From: a virus
Strand: one strand, 5' to 3'
IMG/VR virus record: IMGVR_UViG_3300005264_000009
Coordinates: 23,210-87,209 of that record
DNA length: 64,000 nucleotides
Shown in pieces: positions 5,130 through 39,386 of this stretch; within the stretch, counting starts at the first letter, position 1; each line of letters opens with the position of its first letter. Position numbers and translations under genes: made by a program. The notes under the pieces were generated by a model. That model had not been told where the DNA came from and did not search any database. It saw only the letters and a list, made by a program, of their open reading frames with translations.

Positions 5130-6032
5130 ATGAAAAATATTTATAAACAATTAGAATTTGTTGATATTAGGAATGTTTTGGATGATCTTAATATTGAATA
5201 CAATGAGGCAGGTAAAAACATTGGTAATGAATGGCTTGGTATTGAGATTTGTCCGTTCTGCCAAAGTACAAATAACCATTTAGGAATTAATATTAATTCC
5301 CCTGTTTTTAGTTGTTTTGCATGCGGTGAGAAAGGAAACACATTAAAATATTTAGTTAAAGAACTAAATTCATATCCAAAAGCTATTCAAATCTTAGAAA
5401 AACATCTTCCTTTAGAATTTAAGAAACAAAATAAAAAAATAAAAAACAATAATATAAATGTAAAACTACCCACGAGTAATAAAAACCCAAGTATATACCA
5501 AAAGAATTATTTAATAAATAGAGACTTCAACCCTGATGAATTAATCGAGAAATACGATTTATACTTTTGTGGTCCTACAGGTAAATGGGCTAATAGAATA
5601 ATAGTACCTATATTTAAAAACAGGATGTTAATTACTTTCACAAGTATAGATATTCATAAAGGTTCTAAAATGAGATACAAACATTTATCGGAAGAGAAAA
5701 GTATAATACCTATTAAAAAACATTTATTTGGTCTTGAAAACCAAAGAGATTCTGTTATTGTAGTTGAAGGAATTTTCGATAAATTTAGAATAGGTACTAA
5801 TTGTGTTTGTTCTTTCGGTACACAACAAACACAAGATCAAACAGCAATTTTAAGTGAATTTAAAAGGGTTATAATAGCCTTTGATGGTGATAAGGCTGGC
5901 AATATAGCTATGAACAGATTAGGGGCTAATTTAGCCACGTTATCAGAGGTAATACAGGTAACTTTACCAACTGGAAAAGATCCTGATATGCTTTCCAATA
6001 AAGAAGTAAAAGAAATAAGAAGTTTATTATGA
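5130..6032 (+). CDS. dnaG: DNA primase (Zn finger + TOPRIM)
   Basis: CPFC..H....CFACG zinc finger; VVEGIFD and FDGDKAG TOPRIM motifs; KDP. Confidence 0.9.
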   Translation: MKNIYKQLEFVDIRNVLDDLNIEYNEAGKNIGNEWLGIEICPFCQSTNNHLGININSPVFSCFACGEKGNTLKYLVKELNSYPKAIQILEKHLPLEFKKQNKKIKNNNINVKLPTSNKNPSIYQKNYLINRDFNPDELIEKYDLYFCGPTGKWANRIIVPIFKNRMLITFTSIDIHKGSKMRYKHLSEEKSIIPIKKHLFGLENQRDSVIVVEGIFDKFRIGTNCVCSFGTQQTQDQTAILSEFKRVIIAFDGDKAGNIAMNRLGANLATLSEVIQVTLPTGKDPDMLSNKEVKEIRSLL

Positions 6033-7389: not shown

Positions 7390-7983
7390 ATGAAAAAAGA
7401 TTGGACAGGAAATTCAAAAACCACATTTACCACTTTAGGTGCAAGTAGTCATACAAGAGAGAAAAGAGAAGAAAATGATTATTATGCAACACATCCAGAA
7501 GCTGTAAGAATGTTATTTAAGTTAGAAGATTTTAATAGTGTTCTTGAACCATCATGTGGTGAGGGTCATCTTGCAAAAGAAATTAAAAAAATAAAAGGTG
7601 ATGTTACAGCATCAGATTTAATTGATAGAGGTTACGGTACAAAAAAGAATTTCTTACAATACAATAAATGGGATGGTGATATTATCACAAATCCACCATA
7701 TAAATATGCAAAAGAGTTTATATTGCATGCTTTAAAAATTATTCCTGATGGTAATAAAGTAGCAATGTTTTTAAAATTACAATTTTTAGAGGGACAAAAT
7801 AGAAAAGGTTTATTTCTAAACCATCCTTTTAGAACATTATATGTTTCTTCATCACGTATTTTATGTGCAAAAAATGGTGAGTTTACTAAAAATGGTAAAA
7901 AAATATCATCCGCCGTAGCATATGGTTGGTATGTTTGGCATAAAGGTTTCCACGGTAATCCTATTATAAAATGGTTTAATTAG
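7390..7983 (+). CDS. phage amino-DNA methyltransferase
   Basis: DYYAT, LEPSCGEG (motif I), IITNPPY (motif IV). Confidence 0.85.
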   Translation: MKKDWTGNSKTTFTTLGASSHTREKREENDYYATHPEAVRMLFKLEDFNSVLEPSCGEGHLAKEIKKIKGDVTASDLIDRGYGTKKNFLQYNKWDGDIITNPPYKYAKEFILHALKIIPDGNKVAMFLKLQFLEGQNRKGLFLNHPFRTLYVSSSRILCAKNGEFTKNGKKISSAVAYGWYVWHKGFHGNPIIKWFN

Positions 7984-7990
7984 GTACTAC

Positions 7991-8716
7991 ATGAAATATA
8001 TGGGAAGTAAAAGACGTATTGCCAAGTATATTTTACCTTATATTTTACAAGGTAGAAGTAAAAATCAGTGGTATATAGAGCCTTTTGTTGGTGGTGCTAA
8101 TATCATAGATAAGGTTAAGGGCAAAAGGCTTGGAAGTGATATAAATAACTATCTAATAGAGGCTTTAAAAGCTATTCAAGATGGTTGGCTACCACCAATG
8201 AAAATTACCGAAGAAGAGTATTATGATATTAAGAAAAATAAAGATAATTATCCTGATTATTTCGTGGGTTATGTTGGATTTACTATGAGTTTTGGTGCTA
8301 AATGGTTTGATGGTTATGCCAAAGGTGATAATAGAGATTATGCAAAACAGGCTTTTAAAAGTACAAAAAAACAAGCAACCAAACTTAAAGATATTATATT
8401 TAAAACATGTGAATATAACGAATTAGAAACACCTCCTAATAGTATTATTTATTGTGACCCACCTTATAAAGGCACAAAAGAATATAAAAATAAAAAATTT
8501 AATCATGATAAATTTTGGGAGTGGTGTAGAAAAAAAGTAAAAGAAGGACATAAAGTTTTTATAAGTGAGTACAATGCACCACCAGATTTTATTTGTATTT
8601 GGGAAAAAAAGGTAAAAATAACAACATCTTTAGATAATTATAAAACAAGTATAGAAAAATTATTCCAACATAAAAGCCAAGTTATAAAGCGAGAAAAACA
8701 AAGTTTATTATTTTAA
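7991..8716 (+). CDS. Dam/D12-class N6-adenine DNA methyltransferase
   Basis: KYMGSK, EPFVGG, YCDPPY. Confidence 0.9.
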   Translation: MKYMGSKRRIAKYILPYILQGRSKNQWYIEPFVGGANIIDKVKGKRLGSDINNYLIEALKAIQDGWLPPMKITEEEYYDIKKNKDNYPDYFVGYVGFTMSFGAKWFDGYAKGDNRDYAKQAFKSTKKQATKLKDIIFKTCEYNELETPPNSIIYCDPPYKGTKEYKNKKFNHDKFWEWCRKKVKEGHKVFISEYNAPPDFICIWEKKVKITTSLDNYKTSIEKLFQHKSQVIKREKQSLLF

Positions 8717-8726
8717 AAGGAGGATT

Positions 8727-9104
8727 ATGAAAATTTATTTAGCTGTACCTTACATGAGTGATGACATTAATATTATTGAAGAACGTGTCAGATTAGTTAA
8801 TGAAATGGCTGGTAAGATAATGGAACTTGGGCATACTGTATTTAGTCCAATTTCACACAGTCATCCCATATCAAAGACTATGGAAACAAAGGATGATGCT
8901 TTCTGGATCAAACAAGATTATTCTTTTATAAAATGGTGTGATGTTCTTTGTATTTATCAATTAACAGGATGGGAAGAATCAAAAGGTATTAAAAAAGAAA
9001 CAGCTTATGCTATGCTTTTAGATAAAACAGTATGTAATACTGAACATATATTTAAAAATAATATATATAATTGGAGAAATAAATATATTAAAGGAGTAAA
9101 ATGA
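8727..9104 (+). CDS. DUF1937 / nucleoside 2-deoxyribosyltransferase-like protein
   Basis: KIYLAVPY, FSPISHSHP, W...D..FI..CD, GWEESKG..KE. Confidence 0.75.
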   Translation: MKIYLAVPYMSDDINIIEERVRLVNEMAGKIMELGHTVFSPISHSHPISKTMETKDDAFWIKQDYSFIKWCDVLCIYQLTGWEESKGIKKETAYAMLLDKTVCNTEHIFKNNIYNWRNKYIKGVK

Positions 9105-9865
9105 AATTTATAAATAAAATAATTTGTGGGGATTGTTTAGAGGTGATGGATCAGCTTATTGCAAATAATGTAAAAGTGGATGCTATTATTACTGATCCAC
9201 CGTTCGGAACTATCAGTAATTCTTGGGATGTGGTAATTCCTATAGATAAAATGTGGGAAAGATTAAATAAATTAATAAAAAAGAAAGGGGCTACGGTTAT
9301 ATTCGGCACTGAACCATTCTGCTCAAAAGTTAGAATAGCAAATTTAGATAATTATAAGTATGATTGGGTTTGGGAAAAATCTGGTGTTGGGGGTTATCTT
9401 TTAGCAAAAACACGTCCCTTAACAAATTATGAAAATATAATGGTATTTTATCAAGCCCCTCTACATGGTAATGGTGGTGACGATAACGGAAATTATTATC
9501 CACAAGGTACTAAAAAAACAAAAAAATGGGTAAAAACACCAAGAAGAATCACTCCATGCAACAGATCAATATCTAAAAAAGAAGTAATATTACAAGATAC
9601 AACAAATTATCCTAAACGAATTTTACGTTTTAACAAAGAGCCTTTAAGTCTTCACTCTTCCCAAAAACCTTTAAATTTAATGGATTACTTGGTAAAAACG
9701 TACACTAAAGAGGGTGAAACAGTCCTTGACTTCACCTGCGGTTCAGGAAGTACACTTGTATCTTGCAAACGTAATAAAAGGCAATTTATAGGTATAGAAC
9801 AAGACAGTAAATTTGTAGATATATCTAAAAAAAGATTAAACAATATAACATTAAATTTATTTTAA
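9101..9865 (+). CDS. N4-cytosine/N6-adenine DNA methyltransferase (beta class)
   Basis: GDCL, TDPPFG, H.SQKP, VLDFTCGSGST. Confidence 0.9.
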   Translation: MKFINKIICGDCLEVMDQLIANNVKVDAIITDPPFGTISNSWDVVIPIDKMWERLNKLIKKKGATVIFGTEPFCSKVRIANLDNYKYDWVWEKSGVGGYLLAKTRPLTNYENIMVFYQAPLHGNGGDDNGNYYPQGTKKTKKWVKTPRRITPCNRSISKKEVILQDTTNYPKRILRFNKEPLSLHSSQKPLNLMDYLVKTYTKEGETVLDFTCGSGSTLVSCKRNKRQFIGIEQDSKFVDISKKRLNNITLNLF

Positions 9866-17736: not shown

Positions 17737-18411
17737 ATGGATCGTAACCATCAAATTACACCACACCTTAAAATTATGAAAAAAATTAAGAAAATCAAAA
17801 GTGATCGTAGTTTACAGGAATTATTAGTAAATAAAGATTGTACGTTTAAGTGCCCTATAAAAGGGTATCAAACTATAATCGAAATTTGCCATTACTGTAA
17901 CGTGTATAACTCTTGTGATGTATTTACTAAGGCAGAAAAGGTTTTGCTAAGTGAACATACATTACAATTACCAGTACCATATACTGTACCAAAAAAGGGG
18001 ACTAAAATGAAGAAAAAAGATGTAAAAGATGTAAAGGAAGAAAAAGATGTAAAGGAAGTTAAGGAAGTTAAGGAAGAAAAAGATGTAAAGGAAGTTAATA
18101 AAAATAAAGAAAAACCAAATGATCCTAACAAGGTCAGCCAAAAGAAATTTAAGGAACATTCCAACATCTTAAATAAAATTTTGGTTGAAAATAAATTAAA
18201 GAAAATCAAAAAAAGTAAATCAAAAAAACAATCAATAATGAACTTCATGGCATCTTTTACTGAATTAAATGATGCTAACCTTTTATATTTAATTCCAAGA
18301 GGAACTATCAATGTAATGTGTGTGTTCCTAAGTGATAGAATTGAATGGTTGGAAAAAGAAAAAGCAAAAAAAGAAAAGGAGGAAAAAGTAGAAAAAAATG
18401 TATCTAAATAA
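17737..18411 (+). CDS. hypothetical protein with Cys cluster and KDVKEE repeats
   Basis: 224 aa ORF after the promoters. Confidence 0.65.
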   Translation: MDRNHQITPHLKIMKKIKKIKSDRSLQELLVNKDCTFKCPIKGYQTIIEICHYCNVYNSCDVFTKAEKVLLSEHTLQLPVPYTVPKKGTKMKKKDVKDVKEEKDVKEVKEVKEEKDVKEVNKNKEKPNDPNKVSQKKFKEHSNILNKILVENKLKKIKKSKSKKQSIMNFMASFTELNDANLLYLIPRGTINVMCVFLSDRIEWLEKEKAKKEKEEKVEKNVSK

Positions 18412-19366
18412 TATCATTTCTTGTTTTGATGGTATAAGTTGTGCTCAAATTGCTCTTGAATATGCTGGTATTGTATTTGATAATTATTTTGCATCTGAAA
18501 CAGATAAATCTGCAATAAAAGTTACGCAAAGTAATTATCCTAATACAATACAGATTGGTGATATTACAAAAATAAATACCAATAAGTTACCACAAATAGA
18601 TTTGATTATTGGTGGTAGCCCTTGTCAAGGTTTTTCACAGTCGGGGAAAAAATTGAATTTTACCGATCCAAGAAGTAAATTATTTTTTGATTACGTTAAA
18701 CTTTTAAAAAAAATAAAACCTAAATATTTTTTATTAGAAAACGTAAAAATGAAAAAAAAATGGAGTGATACAATAACACAATATTTAGGTGTTCATCCAA
18801 TAGAAATAGATAGTACATTAGTTTCTGCCCAAAAAAGAAAAAGATTGTATTGGACGAACATACCAAATGTTACACAACCAAAAAACAAACATATTTTTCT
18901 TAAAGATATTATTGAAAATGATGTTAATACAAAGTATTTTTTAACAGCTAAAGATATAAATATTGAAAAAGCTAAAAAACAAAATATGGTTGTTGCTTTC
19001 ACCGAAAGAAGAACACGAGAAGCCAAAAGTATAAGAAAAGATTATCAAAAAAAGTATAATACTGATTTTTCGCCAAGAAGAGGTAAAGAATTAATACATA
19101 GAATAGATGGTAAAATGAATTGTTTAACAGCCACTTATTCATTGAAAGAACATACTTTACTTGATAAACAAATGAATTATAGGAAATTAACACCAATAGA
19201 ATTTGAGAGATTGCAAAATGTTCCTGATAATTACACACATTTATTAAGTGATAATTTAAGGTACAAAGTATTAGGTAATGGTTTTACAGTGTGTGTAATT
19301 GCACATATTTTAAAATGTATAAATAATAAGAATAATAAAATTAATGTAATAAAAAACTTATTTTAA
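18398..19366 (+). CDS. DNA (cytosine-5) methyltransferase
   Basis: FDGIS, GGSPCQ, LENV, QKRKRLYW, LTP.EFERLQ, LGNG. Confidence 0.92.
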   Translation: MYLNNIISCFDGISCAQIALEYAGIVFDNYFASETDKSAIKVTQSNYPNTIQIGDITKINTNKLPQIDLIIGGSPCQGFSQSGKKLNFTDPRSKLFFDYVKLLKKIKPKYFLLENVKMKKKWSDTITQYLGVHPIEIDSTLVSAQKRKRLYWTNIPNVTQPKNKHIFLKDIIENDVNTKYFLTAKDINIEKAKKQNMVVAFTERRTREAKSIRKDYQKKYNTDFSPRRGKELIHRIDGKMNCLTATYSLKEHTLLDKQMNYRKLTPIEFERLQNVPDNYTHLLSDNLRYKVLGNGFTVCVIAHILKCINNKNNKINVIKNLF

Positions 19367-19369
19367 GAG

Positions 19370-20401
19370 GTGAAAATGAATATTAACGATTTGAAAGATG
19401 CTTTAAATATTGTTAAACCAGCATTGAATCCAAATGGAATGAACACTGCATCAGAATATATTTACTTTTCTGGTGAAAAAGTAATGATTAGTGACCAATC
19501 TATGTGTATTCAAACAGATTTGGAAACATCATTTGATGCTTGGATTAAAGGTAAAGATTTAATAAATATTGTTTCTAAAATAAAAAACAATAAAATTAAA
19601 TTCAGTAAAAAAGATAACAATATTAATTTACAAACAAAAACGTCAAATATTAACTTTAAGTTAGAAGAAGTTATTGATGATTATAATACTTATATAAATA
19701 GTATTGTTGATGAAAGTACAAGTGATGATTATACCAATATACCAGATGACTTCTTGGAAAATATCTTGGTTGCATCAAAATATTGCCTTAGTGATGACTT
19801 TGATAGTTCTTTAGCTTGCGTGGGTGTTAAGGATGGTATTATAAGTGCAATGGATAAAAAACAAGCATTTACCACAACAAGTAAGATAGAAGTCGATGAT
19901 ATGCTATTAATGTGTACTACTGTTAAAAAAATAGTAGAAATTAAACCCACTAAATATTTTATATCTGAAAATTGGTATCACTTTAAAAATGATATATCGG
20001 TTATTTCTATAAGAAAAACTGATGGTGAGTTACCATCATTGCAGAAAATAACATCATTTACGGGGCAGAAATTCAATATTTATGCATCTATTCTTGATGA
20101 TATAACCCTTACAGCATCATTTACAGACCATTTTTTGACTTTTATTAAGGTAAAGTTAAGAGATAACAAAATCCAATTAAGTATTAATGCAGAGTCAGGA
20201 ACAATTAAAACACAAGCTAAAATAAATTATAGTGATGATGAATTAATTTTTAAAATTAATCCTGAATACTTTGCTAACTTAGTAGAGAATTGTACAGACT
20301 TTGAGATTAACGAGGATAGTACACTTCTAAAGGGTGTTTCTGATACGGCAATAATAGTAGCAGCCTTATTTAATACACAAGAGACGGAAACGTATGAATA
20401 A
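19370..20401 (+). CDS. dnaN: DNA polymerase sliding clamp (beta-clamp-like)
   Basis: 343 aa, three-domain beta-clamp-like pattern (L..AL..V..A, NPEYF...V); in replication cluster with DnaX-like loader. Confidence 0.7.
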   Translation: MKMNINDLKDALNIVKPALNPNGMNTASEYIYFSGEKVMISDQSMCIQTDLETSFDAWIKGKDLINIVSKIKNNKIKFSKKDNNINLQTKTSNINFKLEEVIDDYNTYINSIVDESTSDDYTNIPDDFLENILVASKYCLSDDFDSSLACVGVKDGIISAMDKKQAFTTTSKIEVDDMLLMCTTVKKIVEIKPTKYFISENWYHFKNDISVISIRKTDGELPSLQKITSFTGQKFNIYASILDDITLTASFTDHFLTFIKVKLRDNKIQLSINAESGTIKTQAKINYSDDELIFKINPEYFANLVENCTDFEINEDSTLLKGVSDTAIIVAALFNTQETETYE

Positions 20402-20489
20402 ACGTTTTAGATTGTACAATGGTGATTGCCTTGAAATTATGGATAGATTGATAGGTGAGAATGTTATGGGATATCTAATACATGGATAA
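20394..20489 (+). pseudogene. 31 aa N-terminal fragment of a beta-class DNA methyltransferase
   Basis: MNKRFRLYNGDCLEIMDRLIGENV then stop. Confidence 0.65.
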
Positions 20490-21291
20490 AAAAAACATTA
20501 AGGAGAAAATACCATACGGTGTGGTTATTAATGATAGCTATAGTTTGTATAATGGTGATTGCTTAGATGTCATGGACTATCTAATATCACAAAACATTAT
20601 ATGTGATGCTATTATCACAGACCCACCGTATGGTTGAGTTAGTACTACTGCTTGTTCATGGGATTCATTAATTCCATTTGAACCTATGTGGAATAAAATA
20701 TATAAACTTATTAAAGATAAAGGAACAATAGTTTTATTTGGAAGTGAACCTTTCAGTAGTCACTTACGTATGAGTAACATTAAAAATTATAGTTATGATT
20801 GGGTTTGGAATAAAAAAAAGGCAGGTAATATTTTCTTAATAAAAAGTCAACCCTTACGTGTACATGAAAATATAATAATTTTTAATGGTAACAAAGACAC
20901 TTATAATAGTCAAAAAACAAAAAGGAGTACAATAAAAAAATCAAAAAATTATGGTAGTGGTGAAACTATGCTTGGGGAACATAAAAGTAACAAAATATAT
21001 ACTTATAAAGATAGACATCCTATAAGTATAATAAAAGTAAGTAATGCAAGTCAAAAAAATAACTTACACCCCACACAAAAACCTGTTCGTTTATTAGAAT
21101 ACTTAGTTAAAACATATTCAAAAGAAAATGAACTTGTTTTAGACTTTACTACAGGGTCAGGAACAACAGGTGTAGCTTGTTTAAATAATAATCGAAGATT
21201 TATTGGTATTGAAAAAGAAAAAAAATATTGTAAAATAGCCAGTCAAAGATTAAATGAAGCATCTCAATGTTTTATATTTGAAGGGAGTTAA
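20482..21291 (+). pseudogene. beta-class DNA methyltransferase interrupted by in-frame TGA plus 2 extra codons after DPPYG (pseudogene or recoded gene)
   Basis: ...GDCL...TDPPYG*VS TTACSWD...HPTQKP...VLDFTTGSGTTG all in one frame; TGA at 20635-20637. Confidence 0.8.
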
Positions 21292-21516
21292 TTGAAAATG
21301 AGTGTTATGTCTTGTGCAAGAAATGGTTGTAAAAATATAATGTGTTATAGGTCTTGCAGATATGGTTATATTTGCAATGAATGTTTTGATGAGCTTGTAT
21401 TAAGTGGTCCTGAAACAAATTTAGAGCTTTTTATGAAATCAATTAAAACCTATAATTGTGAAAAAGAAAAAGAAGCAGCTTTTGCACGTTTTGATATTGA
21501 ATGTTCTGTTTTTTAA
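21292..21516 (+). CDS. hypothetical Cys-rich protein
   Basis: 74 aa ORF, CxxxxC..C...C..C. Confidence 0.65.
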   Translation: MKMSVMSCARNGCKNIMCYRSCRYGYICNECFDELVLSGPETNLELFMKSIKTYNCEKEKEAAFARFDIECSVF

Positions 21517-21974: not shown

Positions 21975-24635
21975 ATGGATTTATTCAATACAGCGGAATT
22001 AAACGATGCAAAAATAAAGGTAAACCCTAATCATTTACAGCCAAATTGTAAAAAATGTGATTTAAATAAAGCACCTAAAATAGAAGTTTCAGGAGAGGGT
22101 AAAAAAGAAATTCTTGTTATAGGAGAATCAACATTAAATGAGGAAATGACTTATGGAAGTGCTTTTGTTGATGATACAGGATTTCTTTTAAATAAAATAC
22201 TAAGAAAACAAAACATATCTTTAAATAAAGATTGTTGGAAAATAAATGCTGTTAAATGTTATTCACATATAAAAACCAATCATAAACAAATAAATTGTTG
22301 CCGACCAGCATTAGAAAAACTTATATATAAATTAAAACCCAAAACAATATTATTATGTGGAGATGTGGCTGTAACATCATTATTTGGAGAAGATTTTTCT
22401 AATAGAAGTATTTTTCGTTGGAGAATGTATTGTATTCCTGATGAAAAATATAAGTGTAATATTATACCCATTTTACACCCACGTTATGTTTTAGATAATG
22501 ATAAAGATAGTGGTATGTATCGACAATACGAAAGAGATGTTACAAAAGCATGTTATTTAATGAAAAGACCTTTTCTTAAAAACAAAAAGTATGAATCTTA
22601 CGTTACTGTTGTTACTGACTTTACTAAATTAAAACGTATTTTAACTAAAGTAATAAAAAACAAAACAAAAATAGCTTATGATTATGAAACTACAGGTTTA
22701 AAACCATATAGAAATAGACAAAAAATAGTAACAATAGCATTTGCCGTAAGTATGACAAAAGCATTTGCTTTTCCATTTGATTATAAAACTTTTTGGACAG
22801 AAAAAGAACGTAATGAAATTTACACATTATGGCAAACAATTTTAAGAGATGATAAAATAAATAAAATAGCTTATAACGAAAAATTTGAAAAAATCTGGTC
22901 AATGGAAATTTTCAAAGCAAAACCCAAATGTTTTTTTGATCCTATGATAGTTTTGCACATTTTAGACAACCGTAGTGGCATATTAGGATTGAAATTCCAA
23001 ACATTTGTAAATTATGGTGTAAGACCATATGATAAACATATTCAAAAATACTTAAAGGCAAAAAAAGCAAGTGATTATAACAGTGTTGAGGAAGCCCCCT
23101 TTAACGACTTATTGATTTATAATGGCTTGGATTGTATCTTTACATATATGTTATATGACGAATTAATGGGTAAATTAGGAAAAAACAGTGAATTATTAAG
23201 TGCTTATAATTTCTTTATTCGTGGGTTAGATATTATGGCTATTATGCAACATAATGGAATACCTGCAAGTGCTGATTATTATGAACAAACAGATGTTTAC
23301 TTGCACGAAAAAATACAAAAATTAGAAACAGAATTAATGACAGGTAGAGAAGCCACAAAATTTAAAGAAAAGTATAAAAGAGATATTAAAATCAAGTCAA
23401 ATCAAGACTTAGGTAAGCTGTTTTACGAGGTTTTGGGTAAGCCAGCTATAAAGACTTCTAAAGGTAATTACAAGACAGATAAACCTACCTTAGAGACACT
23501 TAAACTACCCTTTGTAGATAAACTCTTAGATATTAAAAAATACGAAAAAGCAAAGGGTACTTACTTGGGGCAATTTAAACGAGAGATTGTAAGTAATAAA
23601 ATACATCCCTTTTTTAATTTACACTTACCTGTTTCATACAGATCAAGTGCAAGTAGTCCTTCATTTCAAAATATACCAAAAAGAGATCCTGAAATATCTA
23701 ATTTAGTTAGAAAAGGTTTATTTGCACCTAAAAATTGTGTTATTTCAGAAACGGATTTTTCTGGAAGTGAAATTATTGGTTCTGCAAGTTGTCATCGTGA
23801 TCCTAATTTTATTCATTATTTACAAAACCCTGAAACAGACATGCATAGAGATATTGCCGAAGATATTTGGCAATTACCAAAAGACATGTTAAACGATCCT
23901 AATTATAATAAGGAACAGAAAAAGAAAGCAAAAATGATAAGATTTTTTGCTAAAAATAATTGGACTTTTGCTCAATTTTATGGAGACTGGTTTCTACCTT
24001 GTGGTACAAATTTGTGGGAAAATGTTATTAATGGTAATTTAGAACTACCAACAGGTCAATCAGTACTTGATTACACAAATGAAAAAGGTATTTACGAGCT
24101 TGGAGAGATAATACAAGGTGTTGTAACACCTGGAAGTTTTCTTGACCATCTGAAAAAAGTTGAAAAGAAAATGTGGTATGATAGATTTCCACAATATACA
24201 CAATGGAAAAATGACATATACGAGCAATATCAAGATTATGGTTATATTGAAAACCACTTTGGATTTAGATTTACGGGTTATATGTCAAAAAATCAATGCT
24301 GTAATTATCCCATACAATCTGTTTCATTTCATCTTTTACTTGATTCTTTAATTGTATTATATAAGAGTTTACGTAAACACAAAATGAAAACAAAATTAAT
24401 AGGACAGATACATGATTCTTGCTTGGCTATTGTACCAGAAAATGAAATTGTAACATACCATACTATTGTACATGATATTATTGCTAATTTACATAATAAA
24501 TTTAAGTGGATGGTTGTTCCAATGGATTCAGAAATAGAAATATCTAAATTAGGTAAAAATGGTGGGAACTTTACTGAAATGAGTGAAATTTCTATAACAG
24601 ATATTCAAGAAGGTAAATATAAAGCAATTATATAA
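21975..24635 (+). CDS. family A DNA polymerase with N-terminal family-4 UDG-like domain and 3'-5' exonuclease (SPO1-type architecture)
   Basis: CKKC/VIGE/NAVKC/LHP UDG-like region; DYETTG exoI, YNGLD exoIII; FQNIP, DFSGSE motif A, R..AK...FYG motif B, IHDS motif C. Confidence 0.93.
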   Translation: MDLFNTAELNDAKIKVNPNHLQPNCKKCDLNKAPKIEVSGEGKKEILVIGESTLNEEMTYGSAFVDDTGFLLNKILRKQNISLNKDCWKINAVKCYSHIKTNHKQINCCRPALEKLIYKLKPKTILLCGDVAVTSLFGEDFSNRSIFRWRMYCIPDEKYKCNIIPILHPRYVLDNDKDSGMYRQYERDVTKACYLMKRPFLKNKKYESYVTVVTDFTKLKRILTKVIKNKTKIAYDYETTGLKPYRNRQKIVTIAFAVSMTKAFAFPFDYKTFWTEKERNEIYTLWQTILRDDKINKIAYNEKFEKIWSMEIFKAKPKCFFDPMIVLHILDNRSGILGLKFQTFVNYGVRPYDKHIQKYLKAKKASDYNSVEEAPFNDLLIYNGLDCIFTYMLYDELMGKLGKNSELLSAYNFFIRGLDIMAIMQHNGIPASADYYEQTDVYLHEKIQKLETELMTGREATKFKEKYKRDIKIKSNQDLGKLFYEVLGKPAIKTSKGNYKTDKPTLETLKLPFVDKLLDIKKYEKAKGTYLGQFKREIVSNKIHPFFNLHLPVSYRSSASSPSFQNIPKRDPEISNLVRKGLFAPKNCVISETDFSGSEIIGSASCHRDPNFIHYLQNPETDMHRDIAEDIWQLPKDMLNDPNYNKEQKKKAKMIRFFAKNNWTFAQFYGDWFLPCGTNLWENVINGNLELPTGQSVLDYTNEKGIYELGEIIQGVVTPGSFLDHLKKVEKKMWYDRFPQYTQWKNDIYEQYQDYGYIENHFGFRFTGYMSKNQCCNYPIQSVSFHLLLDSLIVLYKSLRKHKMKTKLIGQIHDSCLAIVPENEIVTYHTIVHDIIANLHNKFKWMVVPMDSEIEISKLGKNGGNFTEMSEISITDIQEGKYKAII

Positions 24636-37930: not shown

Positions 37931-38668
37931 ATGGAAATTAATTATATTGAATATAAAAATAAGGCTTATTGCAAATCTATTGGTTGTGATAAATTTTACT
38001 GTAAAGATTGTGGTGCTTATAGATTTCACGAGTATTTACAGGAAAACAATTTTTTAATAATTAAAAAAGATTCTGAAATTATTACAAGAAATAATTATGA
38101 TTTAATGTTCAGGAAAAAAGTAAAACATGATTTTATTAATTATATTTTTGTTAATAAAAAAACAAAAAAGGTACTGGCTCAACCCCCTTTTAAAACCACA
38201 AAATATGTGTCAATAATAGAAAAGGATAATGAAGTTTTAATTACAGATTATATAAAAGATAAAGAAGTAAAAATGGTTTATATAATTGATAAAGATGAAT
38301 GGCATTTGATAAGTACACAAAATGTTATTAAACCATCTTTTAAAAATTTAATAGCAAAACAAATAAGTAATGTAGCAAAAAACAGAAAAGATATTTTATC
38401 TGCTTTAGATGATTATTTTAAGGGATACAGTGATAAACAAATAGTAAGTGATAATACTACTATTTATAATATACCAGTGTTTAATATAAAAGTGTATGTT
38501 AATGTACTTGATACACACATTACTTTTTCTCTTATGGGACAAATGAAAAAGATAAATACTGTATATAGTTTTGTAAATGAACAAGATATACCTTGTATTA
38601 TGAAAGATTTAGATACTAAAATATACAATGTTTTAATTGAAGGTGATTTAAATGATCAAAATATTTAA
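37931..38668 (+). CDS. hypothetical protein
   Basis: 245 aa; N-terminus paralogous to 36055..36498. Confidence 0.7.
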   Translation: MEINYIEYKNKAYCKSIGCDKFYCKDCGAYRFHEYLQENNFLIIKKDSEIITRNNYDLMFRKKVKHDFINYIFVNKKTKKVLAQPPFKTTKYVSIIEKDNEVLITDYIKDKEVKMVYIIDKDEWHLISTQNVIKPSFKNLIAKQISNVAKNRKDILSALDDYFKGYSDKQIVSDNTTIYNIPVFNIKVYVNVLDTHITFSLMGQMKKINTVYSFVNEQDIPCIMKDLDTKIYNVLIEGDLNDQNI

Positions 38669-38753
38669 GGGTGATTGTTTAACTGTAATGGATCAATTAA
38701 TATTGGATGGTGTTAAGGTGGATGCAGTAATAACAGATCCACCTTTACAATAA
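38652..38753 (+). pseudogene. N-terminal remnant of beta-class DNA methyltransferase
   Basis: MIKIFKGDCLTVMDQLILDGVKVDAVITDPPLQ*, closely similar to N-terminus of 9101..9865. Confidence 0.8.
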
Positions 38754-38768
38754 GGGGTACAATTAAAT

Positions 38769-39386
38769 ATGAAAAATAAAATAATTAAAGAGTATATTGC
38801 AGGAGTTACCTCTTTAAGAGAGGTTGCTATTATCTGTGGGACTGACCATCACAATGTGAAGAGAACATTAATTAAAGCAAATATAACGATAGTAAGAGCC
38901 AAGACAAAAGCACATACAAAAGCACATTGTAAAGCTATATCTAAGGCATGCAAAGGTAGAAAATGTTGGGTTAAGGGTAAAAAAATGCCAAAAGCATCAC
39001 TTTACAAGAACATGTCTGCACACTTAAAGTGGGACGTTACATCAGAATGGTTGGCGAAGTTTGATGACATCGAAAAACTTAAATTTATAAACAGGGCTAT
39101 AACAAACAGGGATGGTAGGTATCCGTTTACAACAGATGAGTATAAAGAATACATAAATAAGTTTTATAATGATCTGAAATTCAACACACTTTACAAGAAG
39201 TGGTTGGGGACTAACAATAAATATTTGAAACCATCATTAGATCATATAATTCCAAAGTCAAAAGGTGGTACTAATAACTTAGATAATTTACAGTTTCTAA
39301 GTTGGTTTGAAAATAGATGTAAAAGTGATATGTCTCAAAAGGAATGGGATTTACTTAAGAATAATATAAGCGATTATTTAATGTGA
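38769..39386 (+). mobile_element. free-standing HNH homing endonuclease with NUMOD3-like motif
   Basis: PSLDHIIPKSKGGTNNLDNLQFL...EN..K; HTKAHCKAISKACKG. Confidence 0.85.

Follow-up and report, generated by a model that had tools for sequence, protein, structure and literature searches.

The locus described here raises the question of how a DNA methyltransferase (methylase) gene can bear a stop codon directly behind the codons of its catalytic DPPYG motif and be open and recognizable on both sides of it. The gene occupies positions 20482-21291 of a 64,000-nucleotide (nt) stretch of phage DNA, hereafter the window, which is part (positions 23,210 to 87,209) of the 87-kb IMG/VR virus record IMGVR_UViG_3300005264_000009. 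The best explanation of the comparisons reported below is that 20482-21291 would be a working methyltransferase gene that bears one end, the right-hand one, of a selfish HNH homing-endonuclease cassette. The interruption is probably crossed by a short ribosomal hop, in which peptidyl-tRNA-Gly would leave GGU and land on AGU, in an arrangement that resembles a miniature T4 gene 60/MobA cassette. The components of the locus are as follows.

20394-20489, + strand: displaced 5' fragment of the older methylase gene; a 31-codon open reading frame (ORF) recognized from the ORF list and tblastn
20482-20634, + strand: replacement N-terminal part (N-part) of the methylase; ATG to DPPYG in 51 codons, the RNA elements lying in its N-terminal extension
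20500-20505, + strand: Shine-Dalgarno-like AAGGAG, 5 nt 5' of the 5' arm of the helix
20511-20526, + strand: 5' arm of a long-range helix, predicted by the minimum-free-energy and centroid folds and by covariation of the homologous helix
20620-20634, + strand: 3' arm of the long-range helix, made up of the DPPYG codons, take-off GGT 20632-20634 included
20635-20643, + strand: 9-nt coding gap, consisting of the stop TGA (20635-20637), the spacer GTT (20638-20640) and the proposed landing triplet AGT (20641-20643)
20644-21291, + strand: methylase body, which resumes at TTACSWD; 215 codons plus stop, frame open

The codons GAC CCA CCG TAT GGT at 20620-20634 are followed by TGA GTT AGT and then by ACT ACT GCT TGT TCA TGG GAT, just as a preliminary description of this DNA had quoted them. 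Alignment with three homologues (from Clostridium phage FA88, from Flavobacterium phage snusmum6-1 and the window paralogue at 9101) reveals exactly three extra codons between DPPYG and TTAC. Because GT borders both ends, the 9-nt insert can be placed equally well at 20633-20641 or 20634-20642. The statement that removal of the 9 nt restores DPPYG-TTACSWD and that the rest of the gene is open is borne out by this alignment and by the PF01555 profile, which the read-through protein matches at positions 2-220 of 221 across the stop (E value of 3.7e-35; 122 bits, with a cut-off of 26.7). The split methylase covers the full PF01555 domain, including DPPY (motif IV) and the C-terminal FxGxG, and the gene is a PF01555 N6/N4 DNA methyltransferase of the beta class. 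The body is closest to uninterrupted methylases and shares 59% identity with that of L007. The gene had been thought to begin at 20394. Its actual start is 20482, and 20394 is the beginning of the displaced 31-codon fragment, in which homology to methylase N-termini extends to approximately 20468. In a tblastn search against the window, this fragment matches the N-termini at 20527-20601, 9128-9172 and 38658-38714.

The insert is neither an assembly artefact nor a change of the genetic code. It is not unique to one assembly, as it is present unchanged in contigs of three studies, namely a 2017 metagenome from marine sediment (X1), possibly the record's own source, and hydrothermal vent metagenomes of 2018 (X2) and 2023 (X3). 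Over 20346-21323, the X2 contig has no differences from the window. The body in X3 differs by three substitutions, two synonymous and one Leu to Phe, which are too few for a selection test. Reassignment of the stop codon (genetic code tables 4 or 25) was considered and rejected: TGA ends approximately ten ORFs of the window, some of them with ATGA overlaps, and translation with table 4 produces almost no other ORF fusions, the two other fusing frames being ordinary neighbouring genes. TGA is a genuine stop in the window phage genome. A methylase homologue elsewhere, at approximately 300-1100 of L023 (IMGVR_UViG_3300035698_004917), shows TGA in frame where several conserved Gly residues belong, the G of DPPYG among them; its phage appears to read TGA as glycine (table 25-like), and the gene would be no case of hopping. 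As a separate observation on the replacement N-part, a run of eight A (20488-20495) lies right behind its ATG GAT. The X3 contig (depth of approximately 6) has one A fewer in this run, which puts ATG 20482 out of frame with DPPYG; the missing A could be a contig error, a real variant or the mark of a slippery run.

The same type of insert occurs at other sites. IMG/VR was scanned for DPPYG followed by 3-33 nt and then by TTAC.WD, which gave 26 stretches, and the same scan of one genome per prokaryote species, with D[PL]PYG allowed, gave 14 stretches in metagenome-assembled genomes (MAGs) from seven phyla-level groups. A DNA search of named phages added a cultured case, Geobacillus phage vB_GthS_PK3.6, in which GGT TAACGGC ACG divides gp63 from gp64, annotated as two methyltransferase genes; the available part of the PK3.6 paper describes PF01555 as 'encoded twice' and has no comment on the gp63/gp64 split (PMC10459684). 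After removal of repeats by 200-nt context and with the window included, the search of phage methylase genes that the preliminary description had proposed amounts to 36 distinct sites with 28 distinct insert strings. In all 36, a stop stands directly behind GGN (TGA in 23, TAG in nine and TAA in four). The inserts are 4-11 nt long, 19 being multiples of three and 17 not, and their last triplet is GGN in 28, AGY in seven and GTT in one; all seven that end in AGY, the window AGT among them, have GGT as the take-off codon. The 26 IMG/VR inserts measure 4, 6, 7, 8, 9, 10 or 11 nt, ten of them shift the frame, and their final three bases are GGA, GGC or GGT in 21, AGC in four and GTT in one. The MAG inserts are likewise stop-first (14 of 14). 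No stop-free, all-sense insert of 3-33 nt was found at the DPPYG/TTAC junction in the IMG/VR and MAG scans. The uninterrupted junction is much commoner, with more than 119 stretches. An ATG-started frame leads up to DPPYG in all 26 IMG/VR genes and in the window; in the same set, the frame behind the insert is open for 200-293 codons in 23 genes and is ended by a contig edge in the other four. A self-splicing intron or another described RNA family was sought as an explanation and rejected, with no Rfam match at gathering score in the 64-kb window, and the spliced mini-intron suggested earlier is further disfavoured by inserts as short as 4 nt.

Two loci among these relatives may be noted in their own right. 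One Leptolyngbyaceae MAG contains seven copies of an insert-bearing methylase, on different contigs, with the sequence GGT TGAGC ACG (a 5-nt gap). None of the seven (L175, L176, L178, L183, L185 and L186 among them) has an HNH gene upstream, the two distinct versions examined have no strong helix of the kind described below, and each copy lies behind a conserved 120-residue ORF; the copies may be carried by another repeated element. The contig L028 (IMGVR_UViG_3300005613_002790) has three tandem methylase genes, two uninterrupted and one with an HNH cassette and a gap.

The inserts are tightly linked to an HNH endonuclease gene. The window encodes one HNH protein of this kind, located in a second, incomplete locus with the following features.

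38652-38753, + strand: second displaced methylase 5' fragment; 33 codons, ending in DPP-LQ-stop
38769-39386, + strand: HNH endonuclease gene of the cassette family, with a PF01844 match

With this HNH protein, the 1.5 kb upstream of each site was searched, near-duplicate contigs included. A homologue lies directly upstream of 21 of the 35 insert-bearing sites for which 900 nt or more of upstream sequence is available, compared with none of 113 uninterrupted sites; at three more insert-bearing sites, the 3' end of an HNH gene lies at the contig edge. The homologues in the cassettes are 36-63% identical to the window HNH. The layout in most relatives is as follows: a displaced 5' fragment that stops at or near DPP, the HNH gene, a new N-part with the RNA signals, the gap, and the old body. 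This arrangement of HNH gene and fragment indicates that the element would begin at the old DPPY codons and extend through the last base of the stop-first insert. At the window locus, as in relatives, both the displaced and the replacement 5' parts are present (20394-20489 and 20482-20634). No HNH gene was found within 1.5 kb upstream of this 20.4-kb site; the 31-codon remnant abuts the new N-part directly, and the N-part, helix, gap and body are intact. The absence of HNH is read as a secondary loss, and the 20.4-kb cassette appears to be degenerate, its nuclease having been deleted and the decoding device and body kept.

The cassette and the body have separate histories. In 50 of 595 pairs of insert-bearing genes, the N-parts are at least 80% identical, and in 29 of these 50 the bodies are less than 60% identical; one pair has identical N-parts on bodies that are 53% alike. 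In a FastTree phylogeny, 162 distinct bodies were compared; the 34 that bear an insert require 27 state changes, compared with 31 for shuffled labels, and the well-supported branches alone force at least 13. The preliminary description took the 38.7-kb locus for a second methylase broken at the same motif, at 38745. The break is real; what lies there is a 33-codon 5' fragment with an HNH gene and no body, the converse remnant of an element of this kind. The fragment shares 73% identity with the N-terminus of the methylase at 9101, and the HNH gene, 18 kb from the gap site, is the only copy in the 87-kb record. Behind 38769-39386, no new N-part, gap, methylase body or downstream exon was found. 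The same fragment and HNH gene without a body occur in Vibrio phage VnaP (L193 1307-2124), a cultured phage of Vibrio natriegens. These body-less loci in the window and in VnaP suggest that the cassette often outlasts its host gene. A close HNH homologue is also found in Pseudoalteromonas phage H101.

The replacement N-part is longer than its counterpart in ordinary methylases and contains a conserved RNA signal. By the first-ATG rule, it measures 44-53 amino acids in 24 of 27 insert-bearing genes; only six of 121 uninterrupted genes, whose median is 31, reach at least 44. The extra N-terminal stretch first resembled a conserved peptide, K-E-V-x-x-V-G-R. Folding revealed that the codons around V-G-R (CCGUAGGGNG) pair with the P-P-Y-G codons (CNCCCUACGG) approximately 110 nt downstream, in a helix that ends on the take-off codon. 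RNAalifold recovers this helix on 32 distinct insert-bearing genes. Over its ten pairs, 93.1% of the cells are paired (81.6% after shuffling), 38 cells are changed on both sides (12.8 after shuffling), and the covariation score is 0.358 (0.138 after shuffling), none of 500 shuffles reaching the observed value in any of the three measures. When the partner was slid by 1-3 columns as a control, pairing fell to 35-57%. Covariation falls on the third codon positions of Tyr and of both Pro residues of DPPYG. When the 125 nt upstream are searched for the best ungapped complement of the 11-nt 3' arm, at least ten pairs are reached in 25 of 32 insert-bearing genes, compared with four of 133 uninterrupted genes (p = 3e-15). 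In 25 of the 32, GGAG, AGGA or GAGG, usually as AAGGAGG, lies no more than 20 nt 5' of the upstream arm.

In the window, the helix has 15 pairs with one bulge. The region 20495-20650 folds at -47.2 kcal/mol, compared with -31.8 kcal/mol for shuffled sequences (z = -4.45), and none of 200 shuffles is as stable. The small hairpin that had been described for CCACC-GTAT-GGT just 5' of the stop is really the 3' arm of this 15-bp long-range helix with 20511-20526. The window has a candidate stimulatory structure, involving the take-off codon, of the sort expected for gene 60-type bypass, with a geometry unlike that of the T4 take-off stem-loop. In one member (L038/L177, approximately 5340-5480), the N-part has 31 residues, and its ATG comes only after the upstream helix arm and AAGGAGG, both of which are thus noncoding; this argues that RNA, and not the nascent peptide, is the conserved signal. 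A nascent-peptide role for the N-terminal extension was considered and downgraded as doubtful, the conserved V-G-R codons being the RNA arm.

From this anatomy, recurrence, covariation and HNH link, all shown by the comparisons above, we infer the hop and its landing triplet, what the helix does, and immunity to the nuclease. As for its construction, the comparisons show that the cassette enters methylase genes at the DNA encoding DPPYG/TTAC, displaces the original 5' end, supplies its own nuclease gene together with a replacement 5' gene part, and leaves the short stop-first insert where the new DPPYG codons adjoin the old TTAC codons. As the position of the insert suggests, it would split the nuclease's likely target, the conserved DNA encoding DPPYG/TTAC, so that the invaded gene would not be re-cut. 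During translation, once Gly-tRNA occupies GGU in the P site and UGA has entered the A site, termination would fail and the peptidyl-tRNA would detach. The mRNA would then slide by 9 nt, the tRNA would re-pair with AGU at two of three positions, and decoding would restart at ACU to give DPPYG-TTAC with zero added residues. The 3' arm of the helix would be inside the ribosome at take-off, and the helix would re-form behind the ribosome as the DPPYG codons exit. Helix and anticodon would then compete for the take-off codon, which should free that codon from the tRNA and favour forward movement of the mRNA, and AAGGAG may tether the 5' arm at the mRNA exit via the anti-Shine-Dalgarno sequence. 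The length of the helix arms, 10-15 nt, matches the range of gap lengths. A hop from GGU to near-cognate AGU, one of the possibilities named in the preliminary description, would fit the Gly take-off codon, immediate stop, short gap and GGN/AGY ending seen family-wide; another of them, a scar that protects against a homing endonuclease, would fit the tight link with the HNH cassette. The comparisons support the view that hopping and scar may be two sides of one device.

A more specific proposal can be made tentatively, as a serious possibility that we hold with less confidence than the hop itself. The sites may constitute the first natural family of very short stop-hops, operating by a mechanism other than that of gene 60: a ratchet driven by the re-zipping helix, aided by a Shine-Dalgarno-like tether, and spread by the HNH nuclease as a self-immunity device that outlives the nuclease. 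By such a ratchet, the mRNA would advance 4-11 nt onto a triplet matched at two of three positions. After nuclease loss, the device may set the amount of methylase made.

Several points weigh against the hop and against a working gene. The landing AGU of the window fits the Gly anticodon at only two of three positions, and one relative, L050, ends in GTT, which is a poor fit. The GG...GG flanks could be a by-product of the DNA-level origin of the insert and not a selected landing site. A strong helix is missing in four of 32 genes, namely PK3.6, L180 and two of the Leptolyngbyaceae copies. For every member, the hop rests on sequence comparison, and open downstream frames alone are no proof of use. 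None of the data sets listed as containing the stretch is an RNA run, and the contigs compared do not reveal transcripts or expression. Because the cassettes are homologous, the stop-first insert cannot be counted as having arisen 36 times independently. The cassette moves frequently, and many invasions may be recent, so that the bodies would have had no time to decay. The ratio of nonsynonymous to synonymous substitution rates (dN/dS), which had been suggested as a check, was calculated for pairs of insert-bearing bodies and amounts to 0.23-0.40 where calculable; these values come from 12 usable pairs, are confounded by recombination and give no verdict, since the diverged pairs are probably recombinants and provide no evidence either way.

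The strongest rival explanation is that the HNH cassette inactivates the methylase, the insert serves only to block re-cutting, and the frame is open as the invasions are recent. We consider this unlikely, although the mobility of the cassette makes the worry a fair one: N-parts up to 100% identical sit on bodies that are approximately 50% identical, and 27 state changes are needed for 34 insert-bearing rows of the tree. Several other phage methylases could cover the function of a lost one, and loci with an HNH gene and a fragment and no body do exist (38652-39386 in the window; VnaP). However, a mere disruptor needs no ATG-started N-part, yet such a part is kept across cassettes that are 30-50% alike. 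Nor does it need a helix that covaries with synonymous sites of DPPYG, or a stop that is held as the first triplet through 28 insert strings. In the window itself, the HNH gene and most of the displaced fragment have decayed, whereas the N-part, helix and body are intact.

Readthrough, in which a near-cognate or suppressor tRNA reads UGA and the enzyme gains X-V-S behind DPPYG, is quite improbable. It could decode the window insert alone, which is 9 nt long and in frame; 19 of the 36 inserts are multiples of three, and the middle triplet of the 9-nt inserts often encodes I, L or V. The 17 frame-shifting inserts, however, mean that readthrough, which had also been named at the outset, is no general mechanism. 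In addition, TGA is an ordinary stop elsewhere in the window, and the scans found no stop-free insert of any length covered at the junction, which argues that extra residues behind the catalytic loop are not tolerated.

Less probable still is the production of two polypeptides, a 51-residue N-part and a re-initiated body, that assemble as an active split enzyme. Split methyltransferases exist, PK3.6 is annotated as having two genes, and the ATG inside TATGG is in frame with the body. Most inserts, however, have no start codon in the frame of the body; in the window, none of ATG, GTG and TTG occurs in frame from the stop to ACT; a TAC Tyr codon removes the ATG of TATGG in L032, L039 and L045; and the first in-frame Met lies approximately 14 codons inside the conserved segment. 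A DNA-level switch, by which a subpopulation of genomes loses the insert between short flanking repeats (GT...GT in the window, GG...GG in most relatives) and alone expresses the enzyme, is hardly credible, as repeats of 1-2 nt are too short for efficient slippage and every spanning contig (X1, X2 and X3) has the insert and no insert-free joint, contigs being blind to rare variants. A hop by peptidyl-tRNA-Gly remains the preferred account of how the gap is crossed.

The phage that carries the locus is AT-rich and has a replication module that includes a family A DNA polymerase fused to uracil-DNA glycosylase and exonuclease domains, and also a clamp-like protein. The polymerase is encoded at 21975-24635 by one 886-residue ORF, which combines an N-terminal domain of the uracil-DNA-glycosylase superfamily with a 3'-5' exonuclease domain and the family A polymerase. 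No close relative of the whole phage was found; the top methylase relative is 58% identical, and DNA matches in named phages are 60-80% identical. The window contains at least five DNA methyltransferase genes, the split gene and the following among them.

7390-7983: NPPY-type methylase gene
7991-8716: Dam-like methylase gene, with DPPY near the C-terminus
9101-9865: uninterrupted PF01555 paralogue of the split methylase
18398-19366: C5 cytosine methylase gene

Programmed bypass is known from very few natural genes. The family described here would provide a ready series for the study of ribosome release and re-landing, with gaps of 4-11 nt, varied landing triplets, and the helix present or missing. 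It may also represent a second, independent homing endonuclease that carries its own translational repair, which suggests that such repair is a general strategy. For annotation, it means that methylase genes of this type are now called pseudogenes or two genes, as in gp63/gp64 of PK3.6. Because the affected genes are orphan methylases, the device would be relevant to phage defence against restriction.

A literature search, in which supplementary tables lay outside the search, found no report of bypass or of an HNH cassette in methylase genes. The comparison that follows draws on the available portions of the papers cited. The closest known system is T4 gene 60/MobA. In T4-like phages, the MobA element combines an HNH gene with an N-terminal extension and a bypass cassette (10.1101/2022.08.31.505936). 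In both systems, a conserved position in a phage gene for an enzyme is invaded by an HNH endonuclease gene (10.1101/2022.08.31.505936; Bonocora et al. 2011 cited there), and an N-terminal extension and a stretch homologous to the displaced part precede a coding gap. As in gene 60, the take-off codon is a Gly codon with a stop immediately behind it (GGT TGA at 20632-20637 in the window), and some relatives are nuclease-free with the bypass kept. The T4 gap protects against re-cutting, and by analogy the window insert may do the same. The differences are also clear. The host gene is a topoisomerase gene in T4 and a DNA methyltransferase gene here, and the gap is 50 nt there and 4-11 nt here (9 nt in the window). 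The methylase family has no stem-loop in the gap; instead, the take-off codon pairs with a partner approximately 110 nt upstream, and landing triplets often fit at two positions out of three only. Finally, bypass in the methylases is proposed from sequence comparison, and the HNH gene is likened to MobA by its layout and Pfam match.

Stop-hops have been studied in Escherichia coli constructs, in which they work with matched codons flanking the stop (Weiss et al. 1987 and later work, per PMC5009743). The 2016 review by Atkins et al. states, in the portion available, that natural in-frame stop-hops were not known (PMC5009743). As proposed here, a peptidyl-tRNA in these constructs leaves the codon adjacent to the stop and re-pairs a few bases downstream (PMC5009743). 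Two relatives, L044 with GGT TGA GGA and L047 with GGC TGA GGC, share the exact 9-nt geometry of the constructs. The synthetic hops are low-level events, whereas the methylases form a natural, conserved family with what appear to be dedicated RNA signals. The window differs further in its additional spacer triplet.

The bypass elements of Magnusiomyces capitatus are 27-55 nt long. They are mitochondrial, scattered over many genes and reported to be independent of mRNA context (Lang et al. 2014, per PMC5009743), in contrast to the methylase device, which is found at one precise site with a conserved helix. The terminase gaps of Streptomyces phage phiHau3 are similar to the present case as short-distance phage bypass with a slowly decoded codon in the A site, and bypass of one gap has been demonstrated by mass spectrometry in E. 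coli (PMC10732093). Unlike in the methylases, the slow codon there is a rare UUA and not a stop, the host gene is different, a regulatory function is proposed, and, as far as the available text goes, no homing-endonuclease cassette is involved (PMC10732093). Taken together, the comparison supports the view that the methylase family would be a cassette of the gene 60/MobA type whose gap is miniature and whose RNA signal differs, and that it would be new with respect to published knowledge.

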